The notes beneath the pieces were generated by a model, which was not told the origin of the DNA, searched no databases, and saw only the letters and a program-made list of their open reading frames with translations. Positions 7,866-23,796 of a DNA stretch of 31,172 nt are shown here, in pieces (within the stretch, counting starts at the first letter, position 1; every line of letters begins with the position of its first letter). The stretch spans positions 1-31,172 of the forward strand of contig DASCPX010000171.1 of NCBI GenBank assembly GCA_036012755.1, written 5' to 3'. Position numbers and translations under genes: made by a program. This stretch comes from Myxococcota bacterium. Its GTDB lineage: Bacteria; Myxococcota_A; UBA796; CAJQPC01.

Positions 7866-8022
7866 CTAGTACCCTCCGGCGCGAGTTCCGACGCAGTCGG
7901 GGCTGCGACGGGGTGAACGACGGCACGCGCAGCGGGCCGCCGGGGGGAGGGCCGTAGGCCCGGGGGGCAGGGCCCCCCTGGAAGGAAACGAGTGCCCCAG
8001 CGCCGCGACGCGGCGCGCGTCG
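7866..8022 (+). mobile_element. MITE/REP-like repeat, copy 1 (right end uncertain, possibly ~8106)
   Basis: Starts with CTAG immediately after the lrp stop. Aligns without gaps to 9767-9923 with 28 mismatches in 157 nt (~82%, manual count). Contains the hairpins CCGAC-GCA-GTCGG and GGGGGG-CAGGG-CCCCCC. Confidence 0.7.
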
Positions 8023-8476
8023 GCGACAAGCTCGACCATGCCCGCCTCCCATGCGCTGCCGTCCTCTGCGACCACCGCGCGAAACTCGGCGCTGGAGATG
8101 CCCTGGAGGTCCATCAGCGCCGGCTCCGCCATCGAGGCAGGCTCGGACCAGCTGGAGGTGTGGAAGGAGAACTCCTGGCTCCCGCAAGCCTCCATCGTGA
8201 CGTCGTAGGTGGCGTCGAAGGACAGGGGCTCGTCGGGACGGAAGAAGATCCTCCTGCCGTCGAGCTCGACCTCGCCCAGCACCGCACCCTCCGGCCCTTC
8301 GACGCCCAGGCCGACCTCATCGGGGCTTCGCCGAAGAGCCAGAAGAGCTCGCCCTCCGGGTGGAACACGGAGCCAGCCTCGGGCCACTATCTGAAGAGGT
8401 CGGCGCTACACGCAGCAGAGCCCGAGTCCTCGGCGGGATTCGGGCTCGACGAACAGGCGAGGAGGATGGCGAGCAT
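8023..8476 (-). pseudogene. Disrupted lipoprotein with an Ig-like (Big_5/SbsA-type) domain
   Basis: ATG at 8476 gives MLAILLAC-SSSPNPAEDSG...DLFR, then an in-frame TAG (8389-8387), then WPEAGSVFHPEGELFWLFGEAP. A 1-nt frameshift at the G-run 8322-8325 leads to DEVGLGVEGPEGAVLGEVELDGRRIFFRPDEPLSFDATYDVTMEACGSQEFSFHTS. The 3' end runs into the repeat. Confidence 0.6.
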
Positions 8477-8488
8477 CCCCTGAAGGTA

Positions 8489-9649
8489 TCAGCTGATGAA
8501 GTCCTTGACGCGACCGGCCAGATCCGTGGCCTCCCAGGTGAACTCCTCGCGCCCGAAGTGGCCGTAGGCAGCCGTCTGGCGGTACTTCGGCTTGAGCAGG
8601 TCCAGGTGCGCGATCAGGTCCGCGGGCTTGGTCGGGAAGACCTCGCGCACGCAGTCGGCGAGCATCTCGTCCGGGACGACGCCCGTGCCATAGGTGTCGA
8701 CCATGACGCTGACAGGTGCCGCGACGCCGATGGCGTAGGCGAGCTGGACGAGGCAGCGGCTGGCGGCCCCGGCGGCCACGATGTTCTTCGCGGCGTAGCG
8801 GCCGAGGTAGGCAGCGGAGCGGTCGACCTTGGAGGGGTCCTTGCCCGAGAAGGCACCGCCACCGTGGGCGCCGTGGCCCCCGTAGGTGTCGACGATGATC
8901 TTGCGACCGGTGAGGCCGGCGTCGCCCATCGGGCCACCGACGACGAAGCGGCCGGTCGGGTTGACGTGGAAGATGGTGTCGTCGTCGAGCAGGTGGTTGG
9001 GGATCACGCTCGGCACGAGGCTCTCGCGCACGTAGCTGCCGATCTCGGAGAGCTGGACCAGGGGCGAGTGCTGGGTGGAGATGACGACCGTGTGGACGCG
9101 AACCGGCCGGCCGTCGCGGTACTCGATGGTGACCTGCGACTTGCTGTCCGGACGGGCCCAGTCCATGACGCCGGACTTGCGATCCTGGGCGAACTTCGCC
9201 AGCAGCTTGTGGCTGTAGTGGATGCTCATCGGCATCAGCTCTGCGGTCTCGTCGCAGGCGTAGCCGAACATCATCCCCTGGTCCCCGGCGCCCTGCTCGA
9301 CGTGGAGGCCCGCACCGGCGGTCACGCCCTGGCTGATGTCGGGGCTCTGGGTCTCGACCGCGACCATGATGGCGCAGGTGTTCCCGTCGAAGCCCTTGTC
9401 CGAGTGATCGAAGCCGATGTCGTTGACGACGTCTCGGACGACCATCGGGTAGTCGACATGGCCCGCCGAAGTGATCTCGCCGGCGAGGAGCACGAAGCCT
9501 GTCTTGACGGCTGTCTCGCAGGCGACCCGGCTCCTCGGATCCTGGGCGATGAAGGCGTCGAGGATGGCGTCAGAGATCTGGTCGCACATCTTGTCAGGGT
9601 GGCCCTCGGAGACACTCTCAGAGGTGAACAAGTAGTTTTTGAGCGCCAT
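8489..9649 (-). CDS. metK: S-adenosylmethionine synthetase (386 aa)
   Basis: Motifs [60 protein letters not shown] duplicated AAGGAACC precedes the ATG, and TTGACA lies at 9710-9705. Confidence 0.98.
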
Positions 9650-9766
9650 GTTGGTTCCTTGGTTCCTTTGCAAAGCCGGCTGTTTTCGAGCGCCTCGGCT
9701 CGGCTGTCAACCTAAGCCCCGGCCCGCGGGTAGTTGCGCCTATCCGAATGCGAAGATGCAGCCCAG

Positions 9767-9970
9767 CTAGTTCCCTCCGGCGCAAGTCCCGACGCAGTCG
9801 GGGCGGTGACGGAGGGGACTACGGCACGCGGAGCGGGCCGACGGGGGGAGCGCCCACGGCGCGGGGGGCAGGGGCCCCCCGGAAGCGAACTGGTGCCCTC
9901 GCGCCGCCCAGCGGCGCGCGCCGAAGGCGCCGGTGGAAGGCGCGTCGCGGCTTCTGCCGAGGGGCACTAG
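9767..9970 (+). mobile_element. MITE-like element, copy 2 (apparently complete; 196 bp between flanking CTAG tetramers)
   Basis: CTAG at 9767-9770 and 9967-9970. Imperfect 25-bp terminal inverted repeats (18/25). Internal hairpins CCCGAC-GCA-GTCGGG, CGGGGGGC-AGGG-GCCCCCCG and GCGCC-GAA-GGCGC. No credible coding capacity. Confidence 0.75.
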
Positions 9971-10200
9971 TCGCGGGACTGCCGGTGGTGACGAACCGCT
10001 CCGAAAGCGAGGAGCAGCCCCCCGATGCCCAGCATCAGCTTCACCGTCGCGACGCCCATCGCGACCGGGTCGCCCGCGGTCGCCGGGAAGATGCTGGTGA
10101 TGAAGGGGAAGGCCAGGACCTGGCCGGTGTCCTGCCCGTTGTAGGCGTACACGCCGCCTGCGGCGATGACGAACAAGAGGCCCGAGAGGTAGTTCCGCAC
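9967..10200 (-). CDS. Small membrane protein with 2 hydrophobic segments (77 aa)
   Basis: MRNYLSGLLFVIAAGGVYAY...ATVKLMLGIGGLLLAFGAVRHHRQSRD with high GC3. The stop TAG lies within the repeat's right CTAG. Confidence 0.7.
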   Translation of the reverse strand: MRNYLSGLLFVIAAGGVYAYNGQDTGQVLAFPFITSIFPATAGDPVAMGVATVKLMLGIGGLLLAFGAVRHHRQSRD

Positions 10201-10242
10201 GCAGCCCCCCTATCCCGCTGGCCGAGGCTCACGAAGGCTGAG

Positions 10243-11319
10243 TCATCCCCTGACCGTCCGATGCTGGACCAGCTCCTCCCAGTAGCCTCGAAGCGTGCGG
10301 GAGAGGAGCTCTCCGTCGAAGACCTCTTCGACCCGCTTGCGGCCAGCCAGCCCCTGGGAGTCCCGGAGCGCCGTGTCGTTCAGCAGGCGAGCCAGGGCAC
10401 CCGCCGTGCCCTCCCTGTCCCCCGGCTCCAGCATGAACCCGGTCTCCCCTTCCACCACGGCGTCGGGGATGCCATCGACCGTGGTGCTCACCACCGCCAG
10501 CCCGGAGGCCATGGCCTCCAGCACGCTGATCGGGAGACCCTCGGCGTAGCTCGGCAGGCAGTAGACGTCCGCGTCGCCATATGCACGCAGGCGGTCCTCT
10601 CCGGCGATCCAGCCCAGCACCTCGACGCTGTCCTGGACGCCGAGCTCGACCAGGCGCTGGCGGAGGCGCTCGAGGTCTCCATCTCCGCCGACCCGCAGCC
10701 GAGCGGAGGGGGCCTCGTCGAGGACCGCGGGCCAGGCCTCGATGAGGTCGAAGATGCCCTTGCGCTCCCCCACCCGGCCCATGAACAGGACGACCGGGTT
10801 GGCCTTGGGTCCACGCGGGGCCGGAGAGGGGAACTCCGCCGCCGGCACCGGGTTGAAGAGCACCCGGACCGTGGCCTGGCCCTCGGTCCAGCGCGTGATG
10901 TCCCGCGCCATGTCGTTGCTCACGACGTGGACCTGGTCGGCCTCTGCGTAGCACCGGCGCACCAAGGACTCGTGCACCTGCGACCGGGCGACGAGCTCCT
11001 CGAGGTGGGCGAAGTTGTTGTGGAGCACCACGGGGATGCCCGCCGCCGCAGCCTCGCGGAAGTAGACCATCTTGCGGTAGAAGCTCGCGCCGTCGGCGAC
11101 GTGGATGTGCACGAGGTCCCAGCCCTCGCCCAGCGCCGCCAAGAAGCTCGCCTGTCCCCTGGCCATCTGGACGAGCTTGCGGGCCTTGGACCCCTCGCCC
11201 ACCGTCGGGAAGTAGCGCACGTCCAGCTCGGAGAGCGCCCTGGACTCCAGGAAGGTGCGAGCGAGCGTGGCGATGCCGCCTTGGGCCTCCAGAGAGGGGC
11301 CCACCATCGCGACCTTCAC
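10243..11319 (-). CDS. Glycosyltransferase family 4 (GT-B), 358 aa
   Basis: Starts VKVAMVGPSLEAQGGIAT. Motifs FMGRVGERKG and PSYAEGLPISVLEAMASG. The GTG overlaps the wecG stop (GTGA). Confidence 0.93.
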   Translation of the reverse strand: MKVAMVGPSLEAQGGIATLARTFLESRALSELDVRYFPTVGEGSKARKLVQMARGQASFLAALGEGWDLVHIHVADGASFYRKMVYFREAAAAGIPVVLHNNFAHLEELVARSQVHESLVRRCYAEADQVHVVSNDMARDITRWTEGQATVRVLFNPVPAAEFPSPAPRGPKANPVVLFMGRVGERKGIFDLIEAWPAVLDEAPSARLRVGGDGDLERLRQRLVELGVQDSVEVLGWIAGEDRLRAYGDADVYCLPSYAEGLPISVLEAMASGLAVVSTTVDGIPDAVVEGETGFMLEPGDREGTAGALARLLNDTALRDSQGLAGRKRVEEVFDGELLSRTLRGYWEELVQHRTVRG

Positions 11320-12110
11320 TCCGGGTAGTTCCCGGTGACTTCGTACCAGGCCTGCTTGGCGAGCATGCCGAGGAACTTGCTGTCCTCGACGATGTAGCGC
11401 CGGTACATGCGCCGGGGCTCCTGCCAGAGGCGGTAGGTCCACTCGATGCCGGCCCTGGCCATCCAGTCCGGGGCGCGCTTGTAGAGCCCCGCGTCGATGT
11501 CGAAGGTGCCGCCGACGCCGAGCACGAAGCCGACCTTGGCGAGCATCGCCCGGTTGCGGTCGACGAACTCCTCCTTCTTCGGAGAGGAGATGGCGATGAA
11601 CAGCAGCTGAGCACCCGAGTCGTGGATGTCCTTGGCGATCTCGGGTTCGTCCTCGACCGTGAAGTAGCCGTTGCGGGCCCCTACGATCTGCAGACCGGGA
11701 TGCCGGGCCTCGTAGATGGCGCGGGCTCCCTGGAGGCTCTCCTCCTTCGCCCCCAGCAGGTAGACCTTGTAGCCCCGCTGAGCCGAGACGGGCAGCAGCG
11801 CATAGAAGAGGTCGATTCCAGCGACCCGCTCAGGCAGGCGCTTGCCGAAGAGCCGGCTCGCCCAGACCACCGGCGTGCCGTCGGCGGTGACGAGATCGCA
11901 GCGCTCGACGATGTCCCGGAACAGGGGCTCGTCCTTCATCTTCACGAGCTGGTCGACGTTCACGCCACAGCCCTGGTGGGTCCGACCGGAGGCGAGGAAC
12001 TCCTCGACGCGGGCGACGGCCTGGGCCGTGTCGACGACGTCGAAGGGGCAGCCGAAGAGCTTCACGCGCCTCGGCGCGCTGCCAGTCCTGACGTCGGTGC
12101 CGGCCACCAC
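11316..12110 (-). CDS. WecG/TagA/CpsF family glycosyltransferase (GT26)
   Basis: Motifs ADGTPVVWAS, PERVAGIDL, LLGAK, NGYF, SPKKE, GVGGTFD, RAPDW...GIEWTYRLWQEPRRM. Confidence 0.93.
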   Translation of the reverse strand: MVAGTDVRTGSAPRRVKLFGCPFDVVDTAQAVARVEEFLASGRTHQGCGVNVDQLVKMKDEPLFRDIVERCDLVTADGTPVVWASRLFGKRLPERVAGIDLFYALLPVSAQRGYKVYLLGAKEESLQGARAIYEARHPGLQIVGARNGYFTVEDEPEIAKDIHDSGAQLLFIAISSPKKEEFVDRNRAMLAKVGFVLGVGGTFDIDAGLYKRAPDWMARAGIEWTYRLWQEPRRMYRRYIVEDSKFLGMLAKQAWYEVTGNYPE

Positions 12111-13178
12111 TCAGCTGACCTGCTTTTCGTTCGAGCTCTCGTCGTTGACGGTCATGTCTCGAACAGCCGAGGAGGCCCCGGGCCCGAAGCCGTTGTAGGC
12201 CTCGATCTCGTCCCAGTGCGCCTTCATCCACTCGATGGTCTGGTACATGCCCCACTTGAAGTCGGTGTCGGGGTCGTAGCCGACCCCGTCGCGTGCCTTG
12301 TCGACGCTGGCCCGCAGCCGCTTCTTCGTGTCCCACTTGCGGACCTCGGCCCACTTGATGCCCGCCGTGTTGCCGGTGGCCTCGTTGACCATGTCGGCGA
12401 GGTCCTTGATCGTGGTCTCGCGCCCGCTGGCCAGGTTGTACTCCTCGCCGATGGCGTTGTCGTTGGTGCCGAGGCGCAGCAGGCCATCGACGATGTCGTC
12501 GACGTAGGTGAAGTCCCGCGTCTCCTCTCCGGTGCCCGTGAGCGGCAGGGGCAGACCCTTCATCGCCCAGTAGATGAAGTTGGGGATGACGTTCCGGTAC
12601 TGGCCGGGGATCTCTCCGGGGCCATAGCTGTTGAAGAAGCGGGCCTTCACGACGGGGAGCCCGTAGTGGTGGTGGAAGAAGTTCCCGTAGAGCTCGCCGA
12701 GCATCTTCGTGATCTGGTACGGCGTCGTCAGGTGCATCGACATGAACTCCTCCTTCAGGGGAAGAGGAGCCGCGTGCCCGTAGATGCTGCAGCCGGAGCT
12801 CGCGTACACGAAGCGCTCGAGCCCCGTCATCACCGCGTACTCCATGAGCTTCAGGGTGCCCATGCCGTTGACCATGAGGTCGTTCTCGGGGTGGTCGACC
12901 GAGTTCTGGTTCGCGAAGAAGGCGGCGAGGTGGAAAACGATGTCGGGCTTCTCGAAGAAGATCCGCTTGAGCTTGACCTCGTCGAGGATGTCGCCCTCGA
13001 CGAACATCACGTTCGGCAGGCTCGGCACGTTCCAGCGCGCAGAGGCGCAGAGGTTGTCGAGCACGAACACGCGCTTGCAGATCGGCGACAGCGCCCGTGT
13101 CAGGTTGCTGCCGATGGCGCCGGCGCCGCCGGTGATGAAGACCGTCTTGCCCGCGTAGGCCTCGATGTGAGCGTCCAT
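12111..13178 (-). CDS. NAD-dependent nucleotide-sugar epimerase/dehydratase (extended SDR), 355 aa
   Basis: Motifs ITGGAGAIGS, FHLAA, YASSGCSIYG, catalytic YQITK, RFFNSYGPG, TRDFTYVDD. GGAG precedes the ATG at 13178. Confidence 0.92.
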   Translation of the reverse strand: MDAHIEAYAGKTVFITGGAGAIGSNLTRALSPICKRVFVLDNLCASARWNVPSLPNVMFVEGDILDEVKLKRIFFEKPDIVFHLAAFFANQNSVDHPENDLMVNGMGTLKLMEYAVMTGLERFVYASSGCSIYGHAAPLPLKEEFMSMHLTTPYQITKMLGELYGNFFHHHYGLPVVKARFFNSYGPGEIPGQYRNVIPNFIYWAMKGLPLPLTGTGEETRDFTYVDDIVDGLLRLGTNDNAIGEEYNLASGRETTIKDLADMVNEATGNTAGIKWAEVRKWDTKKRLRASVDKARDGVGYDPDTDFKWGMYQTIEWMKAHWDEIEAYNGFGPGASSAVRDMTVNDESSNEKQVS

Positions 13179-13284
13179 TTCGACTCCAGACAATGCGTAG
13201 TACGGCATCACATATCCAATCCCCCTGCCTCCTACCCTAGCCTTCGCTCCTTCCCACCCGGCATCACCCCGGTTTCAGACGACC

Positions 13285-14250
13285 TCACCCACCGGTGAGC
13301 AGGCGCTCGGCCAGGCGCCGGGTGTCGAGCTCGACGACCGCCCGCCTGGCCCCCGTCAAGTCGTCCATATCGTTGCCCTCACGGAAGGGGCGATCACCCC
13401 TGGCCTCGAGGACCGCGACGAGCGAGGCGGCCTCTGGGAAGTCCCGTCGACCCAGCCAGGTGATGGGGGTCCCGGCGGCCAGCGCCTCCGCGATGATGCC
13501 GTAGCCCGGCTTCGTGAGGACGAGGTCGGCTCCGGCGACCAGCGCCGGGTAGGGCACGCCCTCGACCCACAGGCAGTCCGGTCGATCGAGCCGCGGCATC
13601 GGGGGCGACAGCACCCAGGTGACGCCGGCCAGCTCCGGCAAGCGCGCGGACAGATCCTCGAGCCCAAAGCCACCGAAGCTCACGAGCACGCTGCCAGGGG
13701 GCAGCGAATGGGGGCTACGGGATCGTGCAATCACCCCATATCGTTCGATCTTGTCGAAGTCGTACAGACCAGGGCCAGGGGCGAGCTCGAGACCGACGTG
13801 GGCTCGCTGCCATGTGCGGAAGCGCTCCGCCCAGGTTCTCAGCTCCGGGTAGTGGCCGTAGAGCCAGGCCCACTCGAAGTTGCCCACAGCCAGGGCCTCG
13901 ACCCCCGCGCGCCGAGCGGCCTCCAGCCCAGCCGGTGCGATGTCCACGACGACGCGATCGAAGCCCGACAGCTGCCTCGCCAGCTCGTCGATCCGGTCCT
14001 CGCAGCAGACCTCGTCCAGCCGGCGGACGGTCTCGTCGAGGTCCACCGAGAGGCTGTCGCGCTGGGCGAGCCCGACATCGACAGTCCAGGGCACCAGCTG
14101 CGGCGACGGCAAGGTGGCCTCCGCGATCGAGCGAGGTGCCGCAGAGAAGATCGTGGGGTCGACTCCGTGCTCACGCATGACCTCCGCGAGGGCCAGCTGC
14201 CTCGTGAGGTGCCCGAAGCCATGGGCGGAACAGACGATGGCGAGCTTCAC
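13285..14250 (-). CDS. GT-B glycosyltransferase-like protein (GT28/L-arabinokinase N-terminal-domain-like), 321 aa
   Basis: Motifs SAHGFGHLTR, VDVGLAQ.DS, NFEW.WLY, LVSFGGFG, TKPGYGIIAE, RRDFPE. Strong SD GGAGGAGG before the GTG. Confidence 0.75.
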   Translation of the reverse strand: MKLAIVCSAHGFGHLTRQLALAEVMREHGVDPTIFSAAPRSIAEATLPSPQLVPWTVDVGLAQRDSLSVDLDETVRRLDEVCCEDRIDELARQLSGFDRVVVDIAPAGLEAARRAGVEALAVGNFEWAWLYGHYPELRTWAERFRTWQRAHVGLELAPGPGLYDFDKIERYGVIARSRSPHSLPPGSVLVSFGGFGLEDLSARLPELAGVTWVLSPPMPRLDRPDCLWVEGVPYPALVAGADLVLTKPGYGIIAEALAAGTPITWLGRRDFPEAASLVAVLEARGDRPFREGNDMDDLTGARRAVVELDTRRLAERLLTGG

Positions 14251-14266
14251 GGGCTACTCCTCCTCC

Positions 14267-15493
14267 GTGACCTACCGCAGGAGGCTGCTGCTGGCGACGG
14301 GCATGGCGATCCTCCTCGCCTGCCTCGCTGGCATGACCTGGCGCTCGGAGGGGGCGCGCCGTGCCCTGATCGAGAACATCCCCCTGGCCTACGAGGCCTT
14401 CGCCGGGCCCCTGGAGGGTACCTTCACGGGCCTCGACGCAGATCGGTCCCAGCTGCCGATCGATCTCGTCCCCGTCGCGACGGGCCTGCTCCAGCCGACG
14501 GACATCCAGTTCGAGCCCGGGACCGGAGTGATGCTGGTCCTCGAGAAGAAGGGCAAGCTCCGCTGGTTCCACGCTGGCGACGAGGGTACCGTCATCGAAC
14601 TGGAGGTCCGCTATGCCAGCGAGGAGGGACTGCTCGGGCTCGCCTTCCATCCCCGCTACGAGGACAACCACCTCCTCTACATGAACCTCGTCATCGAAGA
14701 GGACGGCAACGATCTCAGTGTCATAGAGGAGTTCGCCGCAGTAGATGGCGACATCAGGCTGGGCTTGCTGCCCACCCGTCGAATCCTCCAGCAGATCCAG
14801 CCCTACCAGAACCACGACGCCGGGCAGCTCCAGTTCGGCCCGGACGGAATGCTCTACATCGGCTGGGGAGATGGAGGATTCCGAGCGGATCCCCGTGAAA
14901 ACGCACAGGATCCATCTACCTGGCTGGGCTCGATGCTGCGGGTCGACGTCGATCGGCCGTCAGGGGAACGGGCCTACGGCATCCCCCCCGACAACCCCTT
15001 CGTCGACCACGCGAAGTGGAAGCCGGAGACCTGGGCTCATGGCCTCCGCAACCCCTGGCGCTTCAGCTTCACGCCGGACGGGCGCCTCGTGGCCGCTGAC
15101 GTCGGTCAGGACCTCTACGAGGAGATCACCTTCGTTCCACGCGGAGCCAACCTCGGCTGGGACGTCTGGGAGGGAGCCCACTGCTTCGAGCCACAAGATG
15201 ACTGCCCGAGCGAGGGCTTCACCGCACCCCTCTACGAGTACGGCCGAGATGACGGAAACAGCATCACGGGGGGCTACACACACAGGGGCGAGAGCTTCGT
15301 GGAGCTGAACGATCTCTGGATCTTCGGTGACTTCGTGCGAGGGAAACTGTGGGCCATCGACCTCGACACGGCAGAGGTCACGGCCCTTGGACGGTGGCCC
15401 ATCCTGCCCTCGACCTTCGGCCGGGACGCCGCGGGCGAGGTCTACGTGGCGGACTACGGCGGCGGCACGATCTACCGCATCGCTCGGCCCTGA
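14267..15493 (+). CDS. PQQ-dependent soluble glucose/sorbosone dehydrogenase family beta-propeller with an N-terminal anchor (~408 aa)
   Basis: Motifs EEGLLGLAFHP, NHDAGQLQFGPDGMLYIGWGDGG, GSMLRVDVD, IPPDNPF, GLRNPWRFSF, DVGQD, SITGG. The start (GTG 14267) is inferred from RRR plus a hydrophobic segment. Confidence 0.88.
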   Translation: MTYRRRLLLATGMAILLACLAGMTWRSEGARRALIENIPLAYEAFAGPLEGTFTGLDADRSQLPIDLVPVATGLLQPTDIQFEPGTGVMLVLEKKGKLRWFHAGDEGTVIELEVRYASEEGLLGLAFHPRYEDNHLLYMNLVIEEDGNDLSVIEEFAAVDGDIRLGLLPTRRILQQIQPYQNHDAGQLQFGPDGMLYIGWGDGGFRADPRENAQDPSTWLGSMLRVDVDRPSGERAYGIPPDNPFVDHAKWKPETWAHGLRNPWRFSFTPDGRLVAADVGQDLYEEITFVPRGANLGWDVWEGAHCFEPQDDCPSEGFTAPLYEYGRDDGNSITGGYTHRGESFVELNDLWIFGDFVRGKLWAIDLDTAEVTALGRWPILPSTFGRDAAGEVYVADYGGGTIYRIARP

Positions 15494-15528
15494 CCAAACC
15501 GCGCGGTCTCGTGAGCATCCCTTCGTCG

Positions 15529-16991
15529 ATGTTCCTGGTCCTCGCAACCGCCTGCGTCGAGCCCCTCTACATCGATCCGCCGGAGAGACGGCCCGAGTCC
15601 CCGCTTCCGGAGTCCACCCTCGACTCGGCCGGACCGGGAGAGTGGGCCGACCCCATCGAGGACATCGGGGAGATGGAGGTCGACACCGACGGCATGGAGC
15701 TCACCGACGCCGCGCTGGCCGGGGACCGCCTGCTGCTGAGCGGGCAACACCAGTTCGGCGATGGCCACCTCGCCTGGGCTGCGGGGGTGGAGGGTGCCCG
15801 CCTGGTCTCGAAGGATGGCGACGAGCTCGGGCCGGAGCTCGCGCTCACCGGAACCTGGCACGGGGTGCTCCTCACGGAGGACAGCATCTACACCGCCGGG
15901 GTCGACCAGATCGCTCGCTACGATCTGTCAGGCACCGGACTCGCGCAGGCGCAGGTCTCCGGATGGTGCCGGGACATGGCGCTGTCGGATGGCGTGCTGG
16001 CCGTGGCCTGCGGATCGGAGGGCGTGCTGCTGCTGGATGCCACCGATCTCGACACCTTGGGGGCCTGGAGCGGCCACGTCTCGGCCCGGACCGTGGCCGG
16101 GGACGAGGACCACCTGTGGCTGGCGGCCTGGTCGGAGCTCATCCTGCTCGACGCAGCTGACCTCGAAGACGTGCACCTCGTGGGCAGCGAGCCCGCTCGG
16201 TCCGCCGCGATGGGCGTGGTCTCAGCGGGGGACGGCCAGGCCCACGTGGCCGATTGGAATCGCCCCTTCACCGTCCGGCGCCAGGCCGTCACGGCTCCCG
16301 AGATTCGCGTCTCTCCGGCCAACGCGATCCCAGGTGACCGGGTGTCGGTCTTCAACGACGGCACAGAGGCCCTCTGGGTCGAGGCCGAAGCCGGGACCCT
16401 GTCGTCCCACGTCGTCCAGCCCAGAGAGAGCGCGACGCTGGACATCCCGGGGGACTACACGGCCGAGAGCCTGGTGCTCACGAGCGACGACCCGGACGAG
16501 GCCAGCTCGAGCATCGAGATCGGCTCCATGAACGGCATGGCGCTGGGCGAGGCAGCCCCGGACTTCGAGGAGTACGACCTCGACAGCCAGCTCTGGACGC
16601 TCGAGGCCTTGCGCGGAGAGGTCGTCTGGCTCGCGACCTTCGACGACGGCTGACCGGCTGCGCCGCCGAGGTCGGTGCCACCGAGACGCGAATGAAGGAG
16701 ACCTGGGGTGAGTCCGAGCTCATACGCCTGTGGGCCTATGGCGCGGGGAGCGACTCCTCGGGGGCTCGCTGGAGGGATGACCACGCCATCGAGGCACCCA
16801 TCCTGATCGACACCGACAGCTCGATACGTCAGGCCTACTTCATGGGCGACGGCATGGGCGACGCCTTCGCGATGAACCCGCGGCACTTCGTCATCGACAG
16901 GGACGGCCTCCTTCGCTACGCAGGCGCGAACCTCGACCCCGACGAGGAGGACGCCGTGATCGCCGCGGCCCTGGCGGCTGGATCGGAATAG
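15529..16991 (+). CDS. Modular lipoprotein: LVIVD-like beta-repeats + Ig-like domain + C-terminal TlpA/Prx-like redoxin with a probable Sec (U-P-G-C). Split into 15529-16653 and 16692-16991 by UGA and a 1-nt frameshift
   Basis: MFLVLATAC lipobox; VACGSEGVLLLDATD and HVADW repeats; VFNDGTEALWV and LTSDDPDE. GEAAPDF..YDLD....TLEALRGEVVWLATFDDG-TGA is followed by CC-GGC-TGC-GCC-GCC-GAG, which leads into the ORF containing PRHFVIDRDG. Confidence 0.75.
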
Positions 16992-17000
16992 ACCGGGGCC

Positions 17001-17294
17001 ATGGAGCTCACGACAAGGCAACGGCGACACCTGCGCGCCCTCGGGCACCACCTGGTCGCCACGGTACGGGTGGGTACGGCCGGTCCGAGCGAGGCGGTGG
17101 CGGAGAAGACCTCGACCGAGCTGCACGCCCACGAGCTCATCAAGATCAAGGTGGGTCAGGGCTGCGCGCAGTCTGCGAAGGAGGTCGCCGCTCTGCTCGC
17201 GGAGACGACCGACTCCCACCTCGTCCAGGTCCTCGGCCGCACGGTGCTGCTCTACCGCCAGCATCCCGAGGATCCCGAGATCGTCCTGCCTTGA
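17001..17294 (+). CDS. yhbY: YhbY/CRM-domain RNA-binding ribosome assembly protein (97 aa)
   Basis: LTTRQRRHLRALGHHL..VRVG..G, HELIKIK, VQVLGRTVLLYR. Confidence 0.93.
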   Translation: MELTTRQRRHLRALGHHLVATVRVGTAGPSEAVAEKTSTELHAHELIKIKVGQGCAQSAKEVAALLAETTDSHLVQVLGRTVLLYRQHPEDPEIVLP

Positions 17295-17986
17295 TCACCG
17301 CGCGGAAGCTCACTCGCACCTACGGCGAGGCGGGGATCCGCGGGGTCGATCTGAGCGTCTACGGGGGCGAGGTCCTGGGCATCGTCGGCCCCAACGGCGG
17401 TGGCAAGTCGCTGTTGTTGCTGCTGCTGGCTGGCCTCGTGGAGCCCGAGTCCGGGGAGGTGCTCCTGGAGGGCACGATGGTGCACCAGCTCGCCCAGGAC
17501 GCCGCGGGCGCCGTCGGACTCATCACGGCGAACCCCGGGCTCTACCCGCAGCTCAGTGGCTGGGAGAACCTGCTGTTCTTCGGCGGCTTGTACGGGCTCT
17601 CGGGCGACGAGGTCCGCATCCGCGCAGCACCGCTGGTCGCCGACCTTCGCCTGGCCGAGGTGCTCGATCGGCCCGTCGCGACCTACTCCAGCGGCATGCA
17701 GCAGAAGCTGTCGCTGTTGCGAGCGCTGTTGATGTCACCTCGGCTGCTCCTGCTCGACGAGCCGACGGCGAACCTGGACCCGCACTCGGCCCATACGATC
17801 TGGAAGAGCGTCCGTGACCACGCGGACACAGGTCTGGCGGTCGTGCTCGCCACCCACGATCTGTCGGCCGCCGAGTGCATCTGCGAGCGCGTCGCCTACA
17901 TCGACGGGGTCCTGGGCGATGTCGTGTCCTTCGACGGGCCGCGCGTGCCCCCCGAGCACCCAGAGCTGTTGGGGCTGTTCGAGTGA
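17291..17986 (+). CDS. ABC-2 type exporter ATP-binding subunit (231 aa)
   Basis: Walker A GPNGGGKS, signature YSSGMQQ, Walker B LLLLDEP, H-loop ATHD. TTGA overlap with yhbY. Confidence 0.92.
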   Translation: MITARKLTRTYGEAGIRGVDLSVYGGEVLGIVGPNGGGKSLLLLLLAGLVEPESGEVLLEGTMVHQLAQDAAGAVGLITANPGLYPQLSGWENLLFFGGLYGLSGDEVRIRAAPLVADLRLAEVLDRPVATYSSGMQQKLSLLRALLMSPRLLLLDEPTANLDPHSAHTIWKSVRDHADTGLAVVLATHDLSAAECICERVAYIDGVLGDVVSFDGPRVPPEHPELLGLFE

Positions 17987-18753
17987 GGCTCATCCTGCAC
18001 GTGGCCCGCCGCGAGGCCTTGGAGCAGCTCCGAATGGGCGGTCTCACCGGGGCGCTGCTCTTCGTCTACCTCTTCTACGTCGCCACCATCGGGCTGTGCT
18101 TCGGCATCTTGGAGATCCTGCGACCCTCTCAGGCCACGTTCCTGGATCAGCTCGCCGCAGCGGGCATCGTCCTGGGCACCTTCGACGACATCGTGCTGAG
18201 CGTCGTGCACGTGGCGAACCTCACGAACGCCACCCAGCTGATGATCTTCACCTCGATCCTCTGCGGGCACGCGGTGCTCCACGACCGCCAGTGCGGGACC
18301 CTGGCGTTCCTCCTCCTGGCGCCGCTGACCCGCGCCCAGCTCCTGGTGGCCAAGGTGATAGGCGCGATGGTGATCCCGACCGGGATCTACGCCACCGCAG
18401 GTCTGTTGATGGTGCTCGCGCCGAGGGCCCTGAAGGTCACCGAACCGGCCGCAGATCTCCTACCGTTTTCCGGTGGTTGGACGGTCGGATTCCTGCTGGC
18501 GACCCCGATCTGGTCCTTCGTCATCGGGGCGCTCTGCGCGATCGTCAGCAGCATCGCGCGAGACGTGCGGACCGCCCAGATGGTCACCTCGATCGTCGTC
18601 TACTTCACCTCCGTGGGGCTCGGCGCCGCCATCGTCGCCGCCATCCCGGAGGGCGCCGTGGCCCAGCTCGGACTCAGCATCGTCGGCGTCTTCGCCGCGG
18701 CGGCGACGGTGATGATCGGCAGCTCCGTGATCAGTCGCGACCTGTCCAGGTGA
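17983..18753 (+). CDS. ABC-2 type exporter permease (256 aa)
   Basis: GTGA overlap with the ATPase. Motifs VARRE, DRQCGTLAFLLLAPLTRAQLLVAK, SSIARDVRTAQ; about 6 TM segments. Confidence 0.88.
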   Translation: MRLILHVARREALEQLRMGGLTGALLFVYLFYVATIGLCFGILEILRPSQATFLDQLAAAGIVLGTFDDIVLSVVHVANLTNATQLMIFTSILCGHAVLHDRQCGTLAFLLLAPLTRAQLLVAKVIGAMVIPTGIYATAGLLMVLAPRALKVTEPAADLLPFSGGWTVGFLLATPIWSFVIGALCAIVSSIARDVRTAQMVTSIVVYFTSVGLGAAIVAAIPEGAVAQLGLSIVGVFAAAATVMIGSSVISRDLSR

Positions 18754-19123
18754 GCTGGCAAGCCGCCCTGGCCTGTCCCACCACGGTCACTCGCTCGATC
18801 GAGCCGCGCGCCCGGTCCTGGTGCTCCTCGCACCAGCTCTTGTCCTCGGCAATCAGCACGCAGGCGTGGGTGAACGCTCCCGCTGGCGGCGGGCAGAAGA
18901 CATCACCCACGGGGCAGCCGCGCACACGCTCCAGGCCCGCCTCGACGCACTCAGCCGCGGTGCTGCCGGCGCCGACGGCGGCCCCCTCCTCTGCGGCGAG
19001 CCCAACAGCGTCCCCCAGCTCGAGCGTGGCTGGGCGAACGACGAAGCTGATGCCCTGGATGCCCGCGCACGCCGCGATGCCAAAGGCCAGGAAGTACAGC
19101 ATCCGGCGGATGCGAGGTCTCAT
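18731..19123 (-). CDS. Small membrane-anchored Cys-rich hypothetical protein (130 aa)
   Basis: MRPRIRR, then a hydrophobic segment, then 6 further Cys. ATGA overlap with the thioredoxin stop. The 3' end overlaps the convergent permease by 23 bp. Confidence 0.6.
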   Translation of the reverse strand: MRPRIRRMLYFLAFGIAACAGIQGISFVVRPATLELGDAVGLAAEEGAAVGAGSTAAECVEAGLERVRGCPVGDVFCPPPAGAFTHACVLIAEDKSWCEEHQDRARGSIERVTVVGQARAACQLTWTGRD

Positions 19124-19527
19124 CGCTTGCGGTCGATCCTCTTGAGGGCCCGCTGCACGCGGTGCCCCCGGTACACGACCCTCCCGTCTGGTGCGTACAC
19201 GATGAGGTAGGGGATCATTTCACGCCCACCCAGGAGCTCCATCGCCGGAGCCACGCTGGCCTCGGAGGGCGTCTCCGGCAGATCTACGACCCGGACCGCG
19301 ACGTCATCGTGCTCGTAGAGGTAGTCCCGCAGCGTGCCCGCCGCGACATGGCAGGGGGCGCACCAGGCCGCGCCGATGTCGATCACCGTGAACTTGCCCT
19401 CGGCGAGGTGGTCCTCTGGATCCACCGCCTCTCCGCTGCTGATCACGGCGACGTCCAGGCCCTCCAGGGGCACGTCCCACGGACCGGGGAGACTGCCGGC
19501 GAGGGCCATCGACACCAACAGGATCAC
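19120..19527 (-). CDS. Exported thioredoxin-family protein with WCAPC motif (135 aa)
   Basis: GKFTVIDIGAAWCAPC and cis-Pro loop MIPYLIVYAPDG; short signal MILLVSMALA. Confidence 0.88.
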   Translation of the reverse strand: MILLVSMALAGSLPGPWDVPLEGLDVAVISSGEAVDPEDHLAEGKFTVIDIGAAWCAPCHVAAGTLRDYLYEHDDVAVRVVDLPETPSEASVAPAMELLGGREMIPYLIVYAPDGRVVYRGHRVQRALKRIDRKR

Positions 19528-19625
19528 CGCTCGTCAGCTCCCACGTCCGGGCTGCCGTCGTCCCGGGGGTCAGAGCAGGGGAAGAACCAGGCGAGCACGG
19601 ACAGCAAGGTAGCCGCTGTCTTCAT
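19524..19625 (-). CDS. Unannotated 33-aa peptide MKTAATLLSVLAWFFPCSDPRDDGSPDVGADER
   Basis: The ATG (19625) overlaps the deacetylase TGA (ATGA) and its TGA overlaps the thioredoxin GTG (GTGA). It fills the gap exactly. Confidence 0.6.
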   Translation of the reverse strand: MKTAATLLSVLAWFFPCSDPRDDGSPDVGADER

Positions 19626-20608
19626 GGTCCGACCGACAGGGCATCGACCGCCCGCGACACGGCCTCCAGCCCCACATCCGCCTCTCCAAGAGGTGGTGGA
19701 GCGCCGCTTGTGAGGACCTCGACACAGCCCCTCACGCTGCGACAGAGGGCCCCGAGGTCATAGCCCCCCTCGAGGATCAGGGCGCAGGCGGGGGCCAGCT
19801 TCAGTACCTCACCACAGAGGGCGGCGAAGCCCTCGTCGGTGACCTCCAGGCCGCCGAGGGGATCGTCGCGGTGGGCGTCGAAGCCAGCGCTGACCAGCAC
19901 CAGGTCCGGGGCGAAGCGAGCAGCCACAGGGGCGAGCACTTCGCGGATGGCAGCGCCGAGATCGCCGTCCCCGCTGCCAGCAGGCAATGGCACGTTGAGC
20001 GTGTATCCGAGGCCAGGTCCCCTCCCCCGCTCGTGGAGCCCCCCGGTGCCGGGGTAGAAGTCGCCGCGGTGACAGCTGAAGAACAGCACGTCGTCCCGCG
20101 CCTCGAAGTGGTGCTGGGTCCCGTTTCCGTGGTGGACGTCCCAGTCGACGATCAGCACGCGATCAACGCGCCTCAGGGCGTGCTCTGCGGCGATGGCGAT
20201 GTTGTTGAGCAGGCAGAAGCCCATGGCAAAGGAGCGCTCGGCGTGGTGGCCCGGGGGGCGCACCAGGGCGAAGGAGCGCTCACCGGAGAGCGCCGCCTCC
20301 GTGGCCGCGACCGCACAGCCAACAGCCAGGAGCGCGGCGTCGAAGCTCCCGGGAGAGATCGATGTGTCGGGATCCAGCTGCGCGCGCTGGCCCCTCAGGT
20401 ACTCCAGCGTGGCGACGTAGCTGGCGGAGTGGACGAGCTCGGCGTCTTCACGGGTCGCCGGGAGTGCCGACTCCAGGGCCGCGTCCGACACGGGGTTCGC
20501 GCCCAGGTGATCGAGGATCGCGCGCAGCCTCTCGGGCCTCTCCGGATGCCGGCGACCGGGGTCGTGATCGAGCATCCTGAGATCGCTGAAGATGCGGACT
20601 GACGGCAA
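19622..20608 (-). CDS. Zn-dependent histone deacetylase-family (class II-like) amidohydrolase (328 aa)
   Basis: Motifs HPERPERL, RPPGHHA, GFCLLNN, DWDVHHGNGTQ, SAGFDAH.DDPLG, LEGGY. TTG start at 20608 with AAGGAG SD. Confidence 0.93.
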   Translation of the reverse strand: MPSVRIFSDLRMLDHDPGRRHPERPERLRAILDHLGANPVSDAALESALPATREDAELVHSASYVATLEYLRGQRAQLDPDTSISPGSFDAALLAVGCAVAATEAALSGERSFALVRPPGHHAERSFAMGFCLLNNIAIAAEHALRRVDRVLIVDWDVHHGNGTQHHFEARDDVLFFSCHRGDFYPGTGGLHERGRGPGLGYTLNVPLPAGSGDGDLGAAIREVLAPVAARFAPDLVLVSAGFDAHRDDPLGGLEVTDEGFAALCGEVLKLAPACALILEGGYDLGALCRSVRGCVEVLTSGAPPPLGEADVGLEAVSRAVDALSVGP

Positions 20609-20645
20609 CGGCGCGCTCCTTTTGGCGGGGCTATGATGCCAGCCG

Positions 20646-22403
20646 GTGATCGTTCTTCTGCTCTCGACCGCAACCGCCGAGCCCCTCGCCCCCGGCGAGG
20701 AGATCGAGCGTGCCGCCGCCCTGCATGTCACGAACGGGGGCTTCCGCCACGTCGGAGATGCCATCGAGGGCCTCGTCCCGGCCTCCTTCCCCATCGAGGA
20801 CGTCTCGGGGACGACCACCTGCGACGAGGAAGACGAGGCCCCCCTCACCTACGAGCTGGCCTCGACCGAGCTCGTCCTGACCGCTGAGAACGTCGACATC
20901 ACGACGAGCGATGGACGCCTCGACATCACGATCTACCTCTCCCTTCAGTCCGAGCCGAGCGACCTGTTGGTGCAGGGCGACTGCACCTTCCTCACGGATC
21001 TGGACGAGGTCTGCACGATGCGGATCAAGGAGACCTCCGTCGTCGCCCACCTCGGCATGACGATGGAGCTAGTCGACGGCGAGGACGGTCCGACCTTCGA
21101 CGTCGTCGTCGACGATCCGACCGTGGAGATGTCGGCGATCAACAACCCGCTGTCCGACTGCACGCTGGCGGACGCTGTCGACTTCCTGTTGATCGACGAC
21201 GAGTACGGCATCACCTACATCATCCTGGGACTCATCGAGCCGGAGCTGGAGGGCCTCGGCGCGGACCTGGGTGCGACGATCGAGGACGCGCTGAACCAGA
21301 CGACCATCGAGACCTCGGTCGGCCTCGGAGACGCGGAGGTCGCGCTGGCGCTCTACCCGACGCTCTTCGACCTGGGCGACGCCGGCCTGATCCTCGGGCT
21401 CGGAGGGACCGCCGAGACGGACCAGCTCTCCGACTGCGTTCCCCAGACAGAGGGCTCCGAGTTCGCGGACGCCGCCTGGCCCGACTTCGACGAGACGGCC
21501 TGGGAGACATCGCTGGACTACGACGCCGGGCTCTTCCTCTCGAAGGACTTCCTCGACCACGTGCTGTGGAATGTCTACGCCGGGGGCGGTCTGTGCATGG
21601 ACGTCGGCGAACTCGCCGGCGACAGCCTGAGCCTGGAGACGGACCTCTTCGCGCCGATGTTCGGCGAGGAGTTCGCGGCGCTCTTCCCCGAGTCCCAGCC
21701 CCTTGGCCTGCAGACCCGTCCCGCCAGCCCGCCCCAGGTGTTCTTCGACGACGACACCCCTGAGATCACCGTCGCGCTGGAGGACTTCGGGCTCGACTTC
21801 TCCTCGGACCTCGACGACAGGGAGGCCCGGCTCTTCCGTGTCGCCGTCGCGATGGACGTGGGCCTCGACCCTGGGCTGACCTCGACGGCGTTGGCCCCAG
21901 AGCTGCTCATCGACCCAGCGGGGATGGAGTACAGCGAGCCCTACAACGAGCTGTTGCCAGAGGGCTTCAGCGCTGACCTCGGGGACTTCCTGCCGACGAT
22001 CATCGAGCAGTTCATCCCAGAAGACGTGCTGCCCGTGATCGACCTTCCGGACTTCTACGGCCTGGGCCTGCAGACCGTCTTCTGGGTCCCTGACGACAGC
22101 GAACAGTGGCAGGGCGGCTTCGTGCTGATCGACGTCGAGGGCGTCACGCCGATGGAGATCCCGGGCTGCCAGGGCGGCTCGCTGGGCTGCGACGGCGAGG
22201 AGCCCCCTGACTTCAACAGCATGCTCGGCTGCGACGAAGACGGCGGCTGCGGTGACTCGGGCTGCTCCGACGAGAGCTGCTCGGGGGATTCCTGCTCCGG
22301 CAGCAGCTGCGCGGTGCACGGCCGCGGCCTCCGCATCCCGAACCGCGTGTGGGTCCTGAGCTTCCTCGGCCTGCTGGGCCTCTGCAGGCGCCGCGCCGAC
22401 TGA
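20646..22403 (+). CDS. Secreted, highly acidic protein, possibly BPI/LBP (TULIP)-fold, with a Cys/Gly/Ser stalk and a MYXO-CTERM-like anchor (585 aa)
   Basis: Short signal MIVLLLSTATA; AALHVTNGGF..V; LFLSKDFLDHVLWNVYAGG.LC; C-terminus SSCAV...VWVLSFLGLLGLCRRRAD; high GC3. The CDS call is secure and the fold is inferred. Confidence 0.7.
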   Translation: MIVLLLSTATAEPLAPGEEIERAAALHVTNGGFRHVGDAIEGLVPASFPIEDVSGTTTCDEEDEAPLTYELASTELVLTAENVDITTSDGRLDITIYLSLQSEPSDLLVQGDCTFLTDLDEVCTMRIKETSVVAHLGMTMELVDGEDGPTFDVVVDDPTVEMSAINNPLSDCTLADAVDFLLIDDEYGITYIILGLIEPELEGLGADLGATIEDALNQTTIETSVGLGDAEVALALYPTLFDLGDAGLILGLGGTAETDQLSDCVPQTEGSEFADAAWPDFDETAWETSLDYDAGLFLSKDFLDHVLWNVYAGGGLCMDVGELAGDSLSLETDLFAPMFGEEFAALFPESQPLGLQTRPASPPQVFFDDDTPEITVALEDFGLDFSSDLDDREARLFRVAVAMDVGLDPGLTSTALAPELLIDPAGMEYSEPYNELLPEGFSADLGDFLPTIIEQFIPEDVLPVIDLPDFYGLGLQTVFWVPDDSEQWQGGFVLIDVEGVTPMEIPGCQGGSLGCDGEEPPDFNSMLGCDEDGGCGDSGCSDESCSGDSCSGSSCAVHGRGLRIPNRVWVLSFLGLLGLCRRRAD

Positions 22404-22406
22404 GGG

Positions 22407-23777
22407 TCAGATACCGAGGTGGGCCTTGCAAGCCGCGACCAGCCTGTTCTGATCGTCGAGCTCAGCGTCCACCCAGGTCTTCTCAGTGACCCACTCGCAG
22501 ATCAGGGTCTTCTCGGCGGTCGGGTCCTCTGAGCTCACGAGGTTGTTCAGCTCGTCCGGGTCGGTCGAGAGCTCCCACAGACCCTCGGTCGGTCCCGGGT
22601 AGGGCTGGGCCTCGCTGTAGGGCGAGCAGCCCCTGAAGGGCGTGTCCACGGCCTGCATGAAGTACTTGCGTGTGCCGTCCACCACGCCCGCGGCGGCCTC
22701 GCCTCGCTCGAAGAACACGGGCGGGCGTGCCTGGCTCTCGCCTCGAAGAAGTGGAACGATATCGACCCCTTCCACGTCAGGACCAGGTGACAGACCGCTC
22801 AGGGACAGCACGGTCGGCACGATGTCGATGGTGCTGACGTGGTCCTCGACGACACCGGGTGACAGCCCCGGGGATCGAATGGCCCAGGTCGTGTTCATCA
22901 CCGTGTCGTAGGGGCTGCAGCCGTGGAAGTAGTAGTCGTCGTGGGCCCCCATCTCCTCGCCGTGATCGGTCCCGGTCACGACCAGGGTGTCATCCCAGCG
23001 CCCGCTCTCTTCCAAAGCCGCGACTATCTCGCCCAGCATCGCGTCGTCCGAGGCGAGCTCGCTGGCGTAGACAGCCTCCAGCCACTCGTCGAAGCCCTCT
23101 GGCTTCTCGCTCGTGCCGAGCATGATCTGGGAGAGGTCCTCTGTCGACACCGGACCGAGCTCCAGCGGACGGTCCCCCCAGAACTCGCTGAGCCAGGGGT
23201 CCCGCGGCGTGTGGTTGGCGTGCGGGTCCCGGACATGGATCCAGATGAACAGCGGCTCCTCTCCGACCTCCTCCAGGTCAGCGAGCAGCCGCTCGGTCAG
23301 CAGGCTGTCTCGCTCGAGGTCTCCGCCCTCCATCGAGCCCGGACCGGTGCAGTAGAAGCGCTCCCAGCCCCGCGATCCGATGACCTCGCAGAAGTTCGAG
23401 CTGTAGCCGAAGGTCCGAAAGCCGGCGTCGGCGTAGTACTCCTGGATCATCGAAGGCATGTCGTCCGGCACGACGGTGTCGTGCACGCCGTGGGTGCGCC
23501 GGTAGGTGCCCGTCGCCATCGACGGGAGGCTCTCGATGGTGATGCCGCGGGTCACGACGGTGTTCTCGAGGACGACCCCCTCGTCGAAGATCCGCTGGTG
23601 GTTCGGCGAGGCGTCGTAGGTGGCATCGAGCAACCAGTCCTCGTTCATGGTGTCGACCGTGAACCAGAGCACCGTGCCAGGCGCGGTCAGCGGGTGGCTG
23701 TCACTCGAGCTGTCAGCGACCAGCGAGTCGTCCGGGGTGGGGCCACCCCGACAGGCGAACAGGAGCAGGATCGACAT
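22407..23777 (-). CDS. Alkaline-phosphatase-superfamily (sulfatase-like) lipoprotein with a non-canonical active site (456 aa)
   Basis: MSILLLFAC; VLWFTVDTM, TIESLPSMATG, WIHVRDPH, GTDHGEE, VSTIDIVPTVL, DPDELNNL. Confidence 0.82.
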   Translation of the reverse strand: MSILLLFACRGGPTPDDSLVADSSSDSHPLTAPGTVLWFTVDTMNEDWLLDATYDASPNHQRIFDEGVVLENTVVTRGITIESLPSMATGTYRRTHGVHDTVVPDDMPSMIQEYYADAGFRTFGYSSNFCEVIGSRGWERFYCTGPGSMEGGDLERDSLLTERLLADLEEVGEEPLFIWIHVRDPHANHTPRDPWLSEFWGDRPLELGPVSTEDLSQIMLGTSEKPEGFDEWLEAVYASELASDDAMLGEIVAALEESGRWDDTLVVTGTDHGEEMGAHDDYYFHGCSPYDTVMNTTWAIRSPGLSPGVVEDHVSTIDIVPTVLSLSGLSPGPDVEGVDIVPLLRGESQARPPVFFERGEAAAGVVDGTRKYFMQAVDTPFRGCSPYSEAQPYPGPTEGLWELSTDPDELNNLVSSEDPTAEKTLICEWVTEKTWVDAELDDQNRLVAACKAHLGI

Positions 23778-23796
23778 CGGGTGGGAACCTACCCGC

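Follow-up and report, generated by a model that had tools for sequence, protein, structure and literature searches.

Short, charge-free leaders in one order of Myxococcota: candidate minimal signals for Sec-dependent export and lipidation

We analyzed a window of 31,172 nucleotides from a Myxococcota bacterium (GTDB lineage Bacteria; Myxococcota_A; UBA796; CAJQPC01), which corresponds to positions 1 to 31,172 of the forward strand of contig DASCPX010000171.1 (assembly GCA_036012755.1), together with the genome it belongs to, designated G000, and the genomes of relatives. Several genes of the window start with very short hydrophobic leaders, which contain neither Lys nor Arg and end in a lipobox cysteine or in an A-x-A motif of the signal peptidase I (SPase I) type. 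Judged from the sequence, these leaders are probably ordinary Sec signals that have been reduced to a short hydrophobic core and a processing motif. An initial annotation had interpreted five of them as a possible lineage-specific export and lipidation code, and all five are present where it had placed them: MLAILLAC at 8476 (minus strand, ATG), MFLVLATAC at 15529 (plus strand, ATG) and MSILLLFAC at 23777 (minus strand, ATG) as lipobox leaders, and MILLVSMALA-G at 19527 (minus strand, GTG) and MIVLLLSTATA-E at 20646 (plus strand, GTG) as SPase I-type leaders. The features of the window that matter here are the following, with genes named in the text by the position of their start codon:

7866..8386, minus strand: frameshifted rest of a broken gene, ending within a dispersed repeat at about 7861-8030 (from comparison with a relative)
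8387..8476, minus strand: open reading frame (ORF) of 29 codons with the lipobox leader MLAILLAC (8453-8476), the 5' piece of the broken gene (from the sequence)
8483..8488, minus strand: TANNNT hexamer 6 nt before the start at 8476, a leaderless-type -10 box (motif scan)
15529..16653, plus strand: lipoprotein-like gene with the leader MFLVLATAC (15529-15555), ending at a probable selenocysteine TGA that is followed by a frameshift (orthologue alignment)
18731..19123, minus strand: gene with a classical Arg-rich lipoprotein signal, Cys at residue 19, with a start codon that overlaps the stop of 19527 (ORF reading)
19120..19527, minus strand: thioredoxin-fold protein (PF00085, below the cut-off) with a 10-residue SPase I-type leader (19498-19527)
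20632..20637, plus strand: TATGAT, a -10-type hexamer 8 nt before the GTG of 20646 (motif scan)
20646..22403, plus strand: 585-aa protein of no known family (family search) with an 11-residue SPase I-type leader (20646-20678)
22407..23777, minus strand: sulfatase-family protein (PF00884, over the cut-off) with the lipobox leader MSILLLFAC (23751-23777)
23786..23791, minus strand: TAGGTT, a -10-type hexamer 8 nt before the start at 23777 (motif scan)

In-frame stops are located 4, 2 and 3 codons upstream of 8476, 19527 and 20646, respectively, and the open frame of 23777 contains no earlier ATG, GTG or TTG, both as previously noted. The genes at 19527, 20646 and 23777 are intact. The assignment of all five as exported proteins holds for the leaders but not for 8476 as a protein that is exported today: its ORF ends at a TAG (8387-8389), the continuation sits in a different frame, and stop and frameshift recur unchanged in the contigs of three public runs, which come from two studies, one of them possibly on the source sample. 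As the stretch is reproduced without difference in three runs, 8476 is a broken gene, whose mature part has an intact relative downstream of metK in G002. Instead of using the box at 8483..8488, the start at 8476 could also have been served by re-initiation after metK. The sixth gene, 19123, has a classical signal, so that short and classical types coexist in the window; the gene caller picked an internal ATG for this gene, which makes it a false positive of the short class.

Comparison with homologues, another suggestion of the initial annotation, revealed that the closest orthologues share the short leaders. The orthologues of 19527 carry short Lys/Arg-free leaders in five of five cases and those of 20646 carry Lys/Arg-free leaders of 10-12 residues in five of five, four of which (G002, G003, G005, G012) have a TANNNT box 6-8 nt before the start. 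For 15529, all three N-termini recovered from five searched genomes are short (G002, G003, G012), and the start of the G002 orthologue overlaps the upstream stop. In the 10 closest homologues of the sulfatase 23777 the Cys is found at residues 7-9, and the next tier is a mixture of short and classical signals.

To place these leaders in a genomic context, the complete genome (6.73 Mb, 68% GC) was annotated with a dicodon gene caller built for this analysis, which returned 5868 calls; further analysis was restricted to the 5743 calls for which the contig contains an in-frame stop ahead of the start. Rule-based classification of this set yielded 663 short charge-free leaders with a lipobox and 336 with A-x-A, compared to 94 and 139 classical ones, and the genome-wide tabulation that had been proposed thus reveals an excess of short over classical signals. 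The short-lipobox rule is above chance, as it applies to 11.5% of gene starts (663 of 5743) versus 0.13% of internal ATG/GTG/TTG codons (102 of 76,923). In 556 of the 663 leaders the Cys is at residue 7-10. The first Cys of a protein shows the corresponding peak, with 130, 210, 141 and 88 lipobox-like cases at residues 7 to 10 versus 13-23 per position at residues 14-22, and this peak is kept in 1431 starts with a stop at most 10 codons upstream as well as in 1106 starts that overlap the preceding stop. A motif-blind set of 1128 genes beginning with a charge-free hydrophobic run gave a similar picture: a Cys occurs at residues 6-13 in 674 of them and is preceded by Ala, Gly or Ser in 93% versus a background of 29%, and in 422 charge-free starts without an early Cys the Ala-x-Ala ends peak at residue 11 (17% versus 1-4% from residue 15 on).

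The short lipobox class resembles Sec/SPase II signals (lipobox [LV][ASTVI][GAS]C; PMC8689077, PMC9360617) in the Cys with Gly, Ala or Ser at -1 and a hydrophobic residue at -3 (Leu in 61%), in the hydrophobic run and unpaired Cys, in the disordered Pro/Asp/Glu-rich tether that follows, and in the presence of Lgt, LspA, Lnt and Lol genes. Unlike those signals, which reviews describe as 16-26 residues long with a basic N-terminal region (n-region) (PMC8689077, PMC9360617, PMC5875014), the short leaders have 6-9 residues before the Cys and no Lys/Arg, position -2 is mostly Leu (60%) instead of A/S/T/V/I, and they are too short for a transmembrane helix, so that the membrane-spanning hydrophobic region (h-region) is missing. 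The short A-x-A class likewise shares the hydrophobic core, the A-x-A, the polar or acidic mature start and a single ordinary LepB with Sec/SPase I signals (PMC5875014), but the leaders comprise only 9-13 residues in total, lack the positively charged n-region of the tripartite n-h-c arrangement and have a core of about 6 large hydrophobic residues, compared to about 10 in the classical signals of the same genome. A twin-arginine origin does not fit, since Arg is absent from the short leaders; an RRx[FLV] motif close to the start is found in 89 further genes. The short leaders would accordingly be described best as a variant of the Sec/SPase I and SPase II signals, which they seem to resemble in function, and not as members of these classes, whose length and n-region they lack.

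The most obvious objection is that the starts are miscalled and that true starts upstream, including CTG or ATH codons, produce normal signals. Initiation signals, for which we counted Shine-Dalgarno words, overlaps with a stop and -10-type hexamers at a distance of 5-8 nt, accompany 465 of the 663 short-lipobox starts and 226 of the 336 short SPase I starts, but only 959 of 5476 internal codons. The TANNNT box has a sharp peak at a spacer of 6 nt (11.5% versus 0.1%), and a hexamer at this distance is the pattern expected for leaderless transcripts in other bacteria. Since the -10 hexamer can contain TAG or TAA, it accounts for many of the near in-frame stops. Leaderless transcription, which would exclude a longer frame if it starts at these boxes, is suggested to be enriched among short-signal genes: a TANNNT box precedes the start by 5-8 nt in 124 of the 663 genes with a short lipobox leader, compared to 327 of the 4511 other genes and 3 of the 94 genes for classical lipoproteins. 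Furthermore, a Lys/Arg codon is absent from the whole interval between upstream stop and start in 121 of the 663, extension to any ATG/GTG/TTG within 30 codons would add no Lys/Arg in 531 of them and, with CTG and ATH allowed as well, still none in 382, and orthologues with unrelated upstream DNA share the start position. A strict set, in which the start has a hexamer, an overlap or a stop within 5 codons, still contains 343 short lipobox and 162 short A-x-A genes. Real errors do occur: 19123 is one, 51 genes have a supported upstream start, and two short calls in the outgroup samples look like internal starts. The expectation that the leaders are not miscalled is hence borne out for most genes by signals, stops and orthologues and fails for this minority, for which we accept a start-calling artefact; as a general explanation it is very improbable. 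A bias at position 2 toward non-MAP residues (MAP, methionine aminopeptidase; 73% versus 21%) was considered as evidence for Met retention, but it is weak because it follows from hydrophobicity. In E. coli reporters there is no position-2 requirement of that kind, and a positive charge at this position is dispensable in the constructs described (PMC2034453).

Export of the short-leader proteins is indicated by the identity of the clients and by the composition of their mature parts, as far as sequence can tell. BamA (TIGR03303) has a Lys/Arg-free leader of 13 residues that begins with a GTG overlapping the stop of lolD, with no start codon available further upstream; one LolA has an 11-residue leader with a stop 4 codons upstream. 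BamD has a 14-residue leader without Cys, and among six ABC peptide-binding proteins two leaders are clearly short, two probably short and two classical. The genome has 32 matches to the MYXO-CTERM model, 3 of them without a gene call, and in 20 of the remaining 29 no Lys/Arg can be gained from a longer start; MYXO-CTERM proteins have been modelled as Sec substrates (PMC11980579). The tail of the 20646 protein looks MYXO-CTERM-like by eye, but it scores below the model and is absent from the TIGR03901 matches. When the leader Cys is not counted, short-lipobox proteins with an even number of cysteines outnumber those with an odd number by 426 to 166, compared to 59:21 in classical lipoproteins and 1798:2137 in other genes (Fisher p ~2e-33, with paralogues uncollapsed). 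This parity fits disulfides in an oxidising compartment together with an unpaired leader Cys available for modification. Walker A motifs are found in 2 of 663 short-lipobox genes versus 210 of 4511 other genes, DxDxDG repeats are enriched in this class, and the first 20 mature residues have a net charge of -3.3.

Short hydrophobic N-termini without a preceding positive charge can, by the known topology rules, insert into the membrane head first. Such leaders could thus be N-out, C-in anchors of proteins that face the cytoplasm, or tags for cytoplasmic S-acylation, with no export involved. The acidic mature N-terminus conflicts with this arrangement under the positive-inside rule, the clients include BamA, LolA, solute-binding and MYXO-CTERM proteins, and both the disulfide-type parity and the depletion of Walker A motifs fit export, so that we give this idea hardly any weight.

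Some further observations concern individual clients. BamD (G000:C149:39842-40597, minus strand), with its SPase I-type leader, lacks a lipobox Cys; in E. coli BamD is a lipoprotein. Four or five coupled paralogous short-leader genes are found at G000:C70:99209-104130 (plus strand), at least two of them with MYXO-CTERM tails. YajC (G000:C27:86880-87236, minus strand) begins with a leader of 9-10 residues ending in A-W-A, followed by a polar linker and a membrane helix, and this translocon subunit may itself carry a cleavable mini-signal.

The genome encodes SecA, SecY, SecE, SecD, YajC, YidC, Ffh, FtsY, TatC and LepB as well as five Lgt, two LspA, Lnt, two LolA and LolCDE-type genes, and the catalytic motifs of Lgt, LspA and Lnt are present; two lspA and two lgt genes form a tandem lspA-lspA-lgt-lgt operon (G000:C59:99967-102591, plus strand). 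The unusual specificity that had been predicted for Lgt, LspA and SecA is not apparent. The five Lgt copies are within the range of 2-7 seen in all 41 genomes of the class that were searched, the Tyr at the position of E. coli His103 also occurs in outgroups of the class, and the Cys-Cys motif variant is class-wide. Two LspA copies are also found in the low-signal genomes G004, G022 and G026, and the high-signal genomes G030 and G021 have one. In SecA 9 of 354 conserved columns are switched, none of them within the two segments displayed, which we take to be preprotein-binding, and in LepB 0 of 48. Inspection of the machinery thus found Lgt and LspA ordinary, as well as SecA and LepB in the segments inspected; the leads obtained instead are SecY, treated below, and Ffh, whose finger loop is longer by two residues in 13 of 14 in-order sequences (by one in G123) than in the 13 outgroups covering the loop.

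It is also conceivable that the proteins are exported and lipidated but the leader stays uncleaved as an additional anchor in the outer leaflet beside the diacylglyceryl group. LspA is modelled to take the signal helix through its transmembrane segments (PMC9360617), for which 6-8 residues give little helix, and the lipobox enrichment and the Cys parity inform on Lgt and not on cleavage. Two intact LspA genes, Lnt, LolCDE-type genes and two LolA are retained, however, and BamA and LolA, which are outer-membrane or soluble proteins, need release and keep their A-x-A sites; we therefore consider an uncleaved leader improbable.

The short-leader trait is confined to one order and occurs throughout it in graded form, as judged from the genome sequences. 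Eleven of 44 genomes of the order contain the pattern Met-(hydrophobic)5-[AG]-Cys between 10 and 91 times, and none of 257 genomes outside has more than 7 occurrences; a minimal signal specific to the lineage, as initially supposed, is therefore supported. In sampled regions of 15 in-order genomes, gene calling (639 genes) found lipobox signals that were short in 28 and classical in 23 cases and A-x-A signals that were short in 23 and classical in 22, ranging from 16:1 in G005 to about even or rich in classical signals, and a few of the short calls are truncations. The outgroup sample (nine genomes, 268 genes) has 39 classical signals (19 lipobox and 20 A-x-A) and the two short calls mentioned above, both probably internal starts. 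Eight of 29 BamA loci have Lys/Arg-free leaders of 13-18 residues, 12 have leaders with Lys/Arg, and 9 are unresolved. The public runs that cover the genome best are marine.

A candidate for the underlying change is SecY. In transmembrane segment 5, all 28 in-order genomes compared have Ala or Ser where E. coli SecY has the pore-ring residue I187 (PMC2171872), and all 8 outgroups have Ile; the F192 position is Thr, Ser, Ala or Val in the order versus Phe or Met in outgroups. The variant motif matches 30 of 44 genomes in the order and 0 of 257 others, and the canonical motif 0 of 20 in-order and 81 of 131 outside genomes. The other aligned pore-ring positions (I82, I86, I191, I278, I408) are intact. 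Most signal-suppressor (prl) mutations map to the pore ring, the gate and the plug (PMC3164448), and the substitution at I187 lies in the pore ring as well. The situation is similar to prlA alleles of E. coli secY (PMC2171872, PMC3164448, PMC13537251) in that a pore-ring isoleucine is substituted and defective-looking signals would nevertheless have to be exported; unlike those, it is natural, fixed throughout the order, situated at I187 and known here from sequence alone, and at this position only I187M is among the tested variants listed.

Based on these data we assume that the signals lost their n-region and about half of the h-region, leaving Met, 4-7 hydrophobic residues and then [AGS]-Cys or A-x-A. 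Leaders of the first kind would be lipidated by Lgt, cleaved by LspA and passed on to Lnt and Lol, and those of the second kind would be cleaved by LepB. The sequence supports the starts and the enriched motifs, the exported nature of many clients, the presence of a full set of ordinary machinery genes and the restriction of the trait to one order, and from this we infer passage through SecYEG and processing by the normal enzymes. As a leader of 6-8 residues cannot cross the membrane as a helix, it would sit in the outer leaflet during lipidation and cleavage. A SecY pore loosened throughout the order by the substitution of Ile187 with Ala/Ser and of Phe192 with Thr/Ser/Ala/Val might have proofread signals less strictly, and the lineages would then have shortened them to differing degrees, aided by acidic mature N-termini. 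That the pore change is the cause can only be put forward tentatively. It is still less likely that a neutral formyl-Met, retained after capture by the signal recognition particle (SRP), helps by removing the last charge. SRP-protected, N-formylated N-out membrane proteins are known from E. coli (PMC5454389); a very hydrophobic N-terminus that SRP could catch early and the neutral formyl-Met are common to both cases, but the E. coli case concerns signal-anchor proteins and not cleavable leaders of 7 residues. The combined model, a naturally 'prl' translocon throughout the order with narrower pore-ring side chains and a remodelled Ffh loop, accepting formyl-Met-capped leaders too short to span the membrane, seems rather unlikely. 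If it were true, about 1000 proteins per genome would be exported, lipidated and cleaved with a signal that dips into the outer leaflet only, and the lower limit of a signal peptide would be reset to about 6-7 residues.

Alternatively, no special machinery is needed: any bacterial Sec system might tolerate such leaders at a lower rate, the lineage drifted, and the differences in SecY and Ffh are neutral and simply characteristic of the order. This differs from reduced Sec signals with a permissive SecY in cause alone, so that our confidence in the two overlaps, and we regard drift as a serious, though not the favored, possibility. The dispensable charge at position 2 in E. coli reporters (PMC2034453) speaks for it, and the load of short leaders differs widely under one SecY variant. 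The near absence of the trait from the 257 genomes outside the order and the coincidence of its boundary with a substitution at a pore residue of mapped function speak for a permissive SecY, but this boundary is a single evolutionary event with no independent repeats.

Several points weigh against reduced Sec signals or against the role of SecY in them. The starts stem from our own gene caller, and for 184 genes of the short class an upstream start is available whose use would bring in Lys/Arg, the 51 supported ones included. The short SPase I class shows no bias in Cys parity (119:122). Textbook lipoprotein signals have 16-26 residues and a basic n-region (PMC8689077), and the h-region has been reported to need a minimal length (PMC5875014). 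TolB and Pal have retained classical signals; this persistence and the continuous gradation of orthologues from classical to short argue against a separate export code, as which the leaders had first been viewed. With respect to SecY, 8 of 193 columns conserved in the outgroups are switched, compared to 6 of 89 in ribosomal protein S5 (adenylate kinase 2 of 54, L15 0 of 42); order-specific changes are thus as many in S5, SecY is not unusually changed, and causation is unproven. The canonical SecY motif is unmatched in 50 of the 131 outside genomes. The SecY change arose once, at the base of the order, and leaves the gradient within the order unexplained. A search for SecY residues separating high- from low-signal genomes in the order returned four weak columns, none at the pore. 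In a cell-free E. coli screen translocation was increased only a little by I187M (log2 +0.47) and F192S (+0.28) and more by F192L (+1.31) (PMC13537251); these in the data available from that study are related variants and not I187A/S.

A description of the trait was not found in our literature search, the reach of which excluded subscription journals and bioRxiv supplements, and the accessible part of a secretome survey that includes Myxococcota metagenome-assembled genomes does not mention short signals (PMC11495043). An n-region of at least 2 residues is part of the SPase I label in SignalP 6.0 (PMC9287161). The minimum requirements of signal peptides are known mostly from mutants of few model bacteria; here 500-1000 natural leaders per genome are available, half the usual length and uncharged, with orthologue series from classical to short and a candidate permissive SecY change. 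The purpose of the n-region and the proofreading of signals by the pore ring thereby become testable. For these uncultured Myxococcota of marine and freshwater habitats, the numbers of secreted proteins and lipoproteins may have been greatly underestimated, and very short export tags are offered for engineering.

Some minor features of the window are added here. The terminal TGA of 15529 aligns with TGA in G002 and G003 or with Cys in G005 and G012 within an x-P-V-C redox motif. In G000 the gene runs out of frame just past the TGA and lacks an internal stretch present in the relatives. It is probably a selenoprotein gene fused to the AhpC/TSA-like domain at 16692-16991 (window 16651-16991, plus strand); the genome encodes tRNA-Sec and SelA-, SelB- and SelD-like genes, and no stable hairpin was found 3' of the TGA (z 0.68). 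A dispersed repeat of about 160 nt flanks the metK region on both sides (7861-8030 and 9767-9923). It has 24 matches in the genome, 16 of them of at least 100 nt, and a very high contig depth in public runs, and it looks like a miniature inverted-repeat transposable element (MITE) or a repetitive extragenic palindromic (REP) sequence. A glucose/sorbosone dehydrogenase-family gene (PF07995) at 14237-15493 (plus strand) has an Arg-rich N-terminal anchor that encloses an internal MAILLAC. At 24795-31054 (minus strand), downstream of a DUF2088/LarA-like gene, a 1554-aa protein is encoded in which fatty acyl-CoA reductase-like, AMP-binding, carrier and acyltransferase domains and an SCP2-like tail can be recognized by eye.

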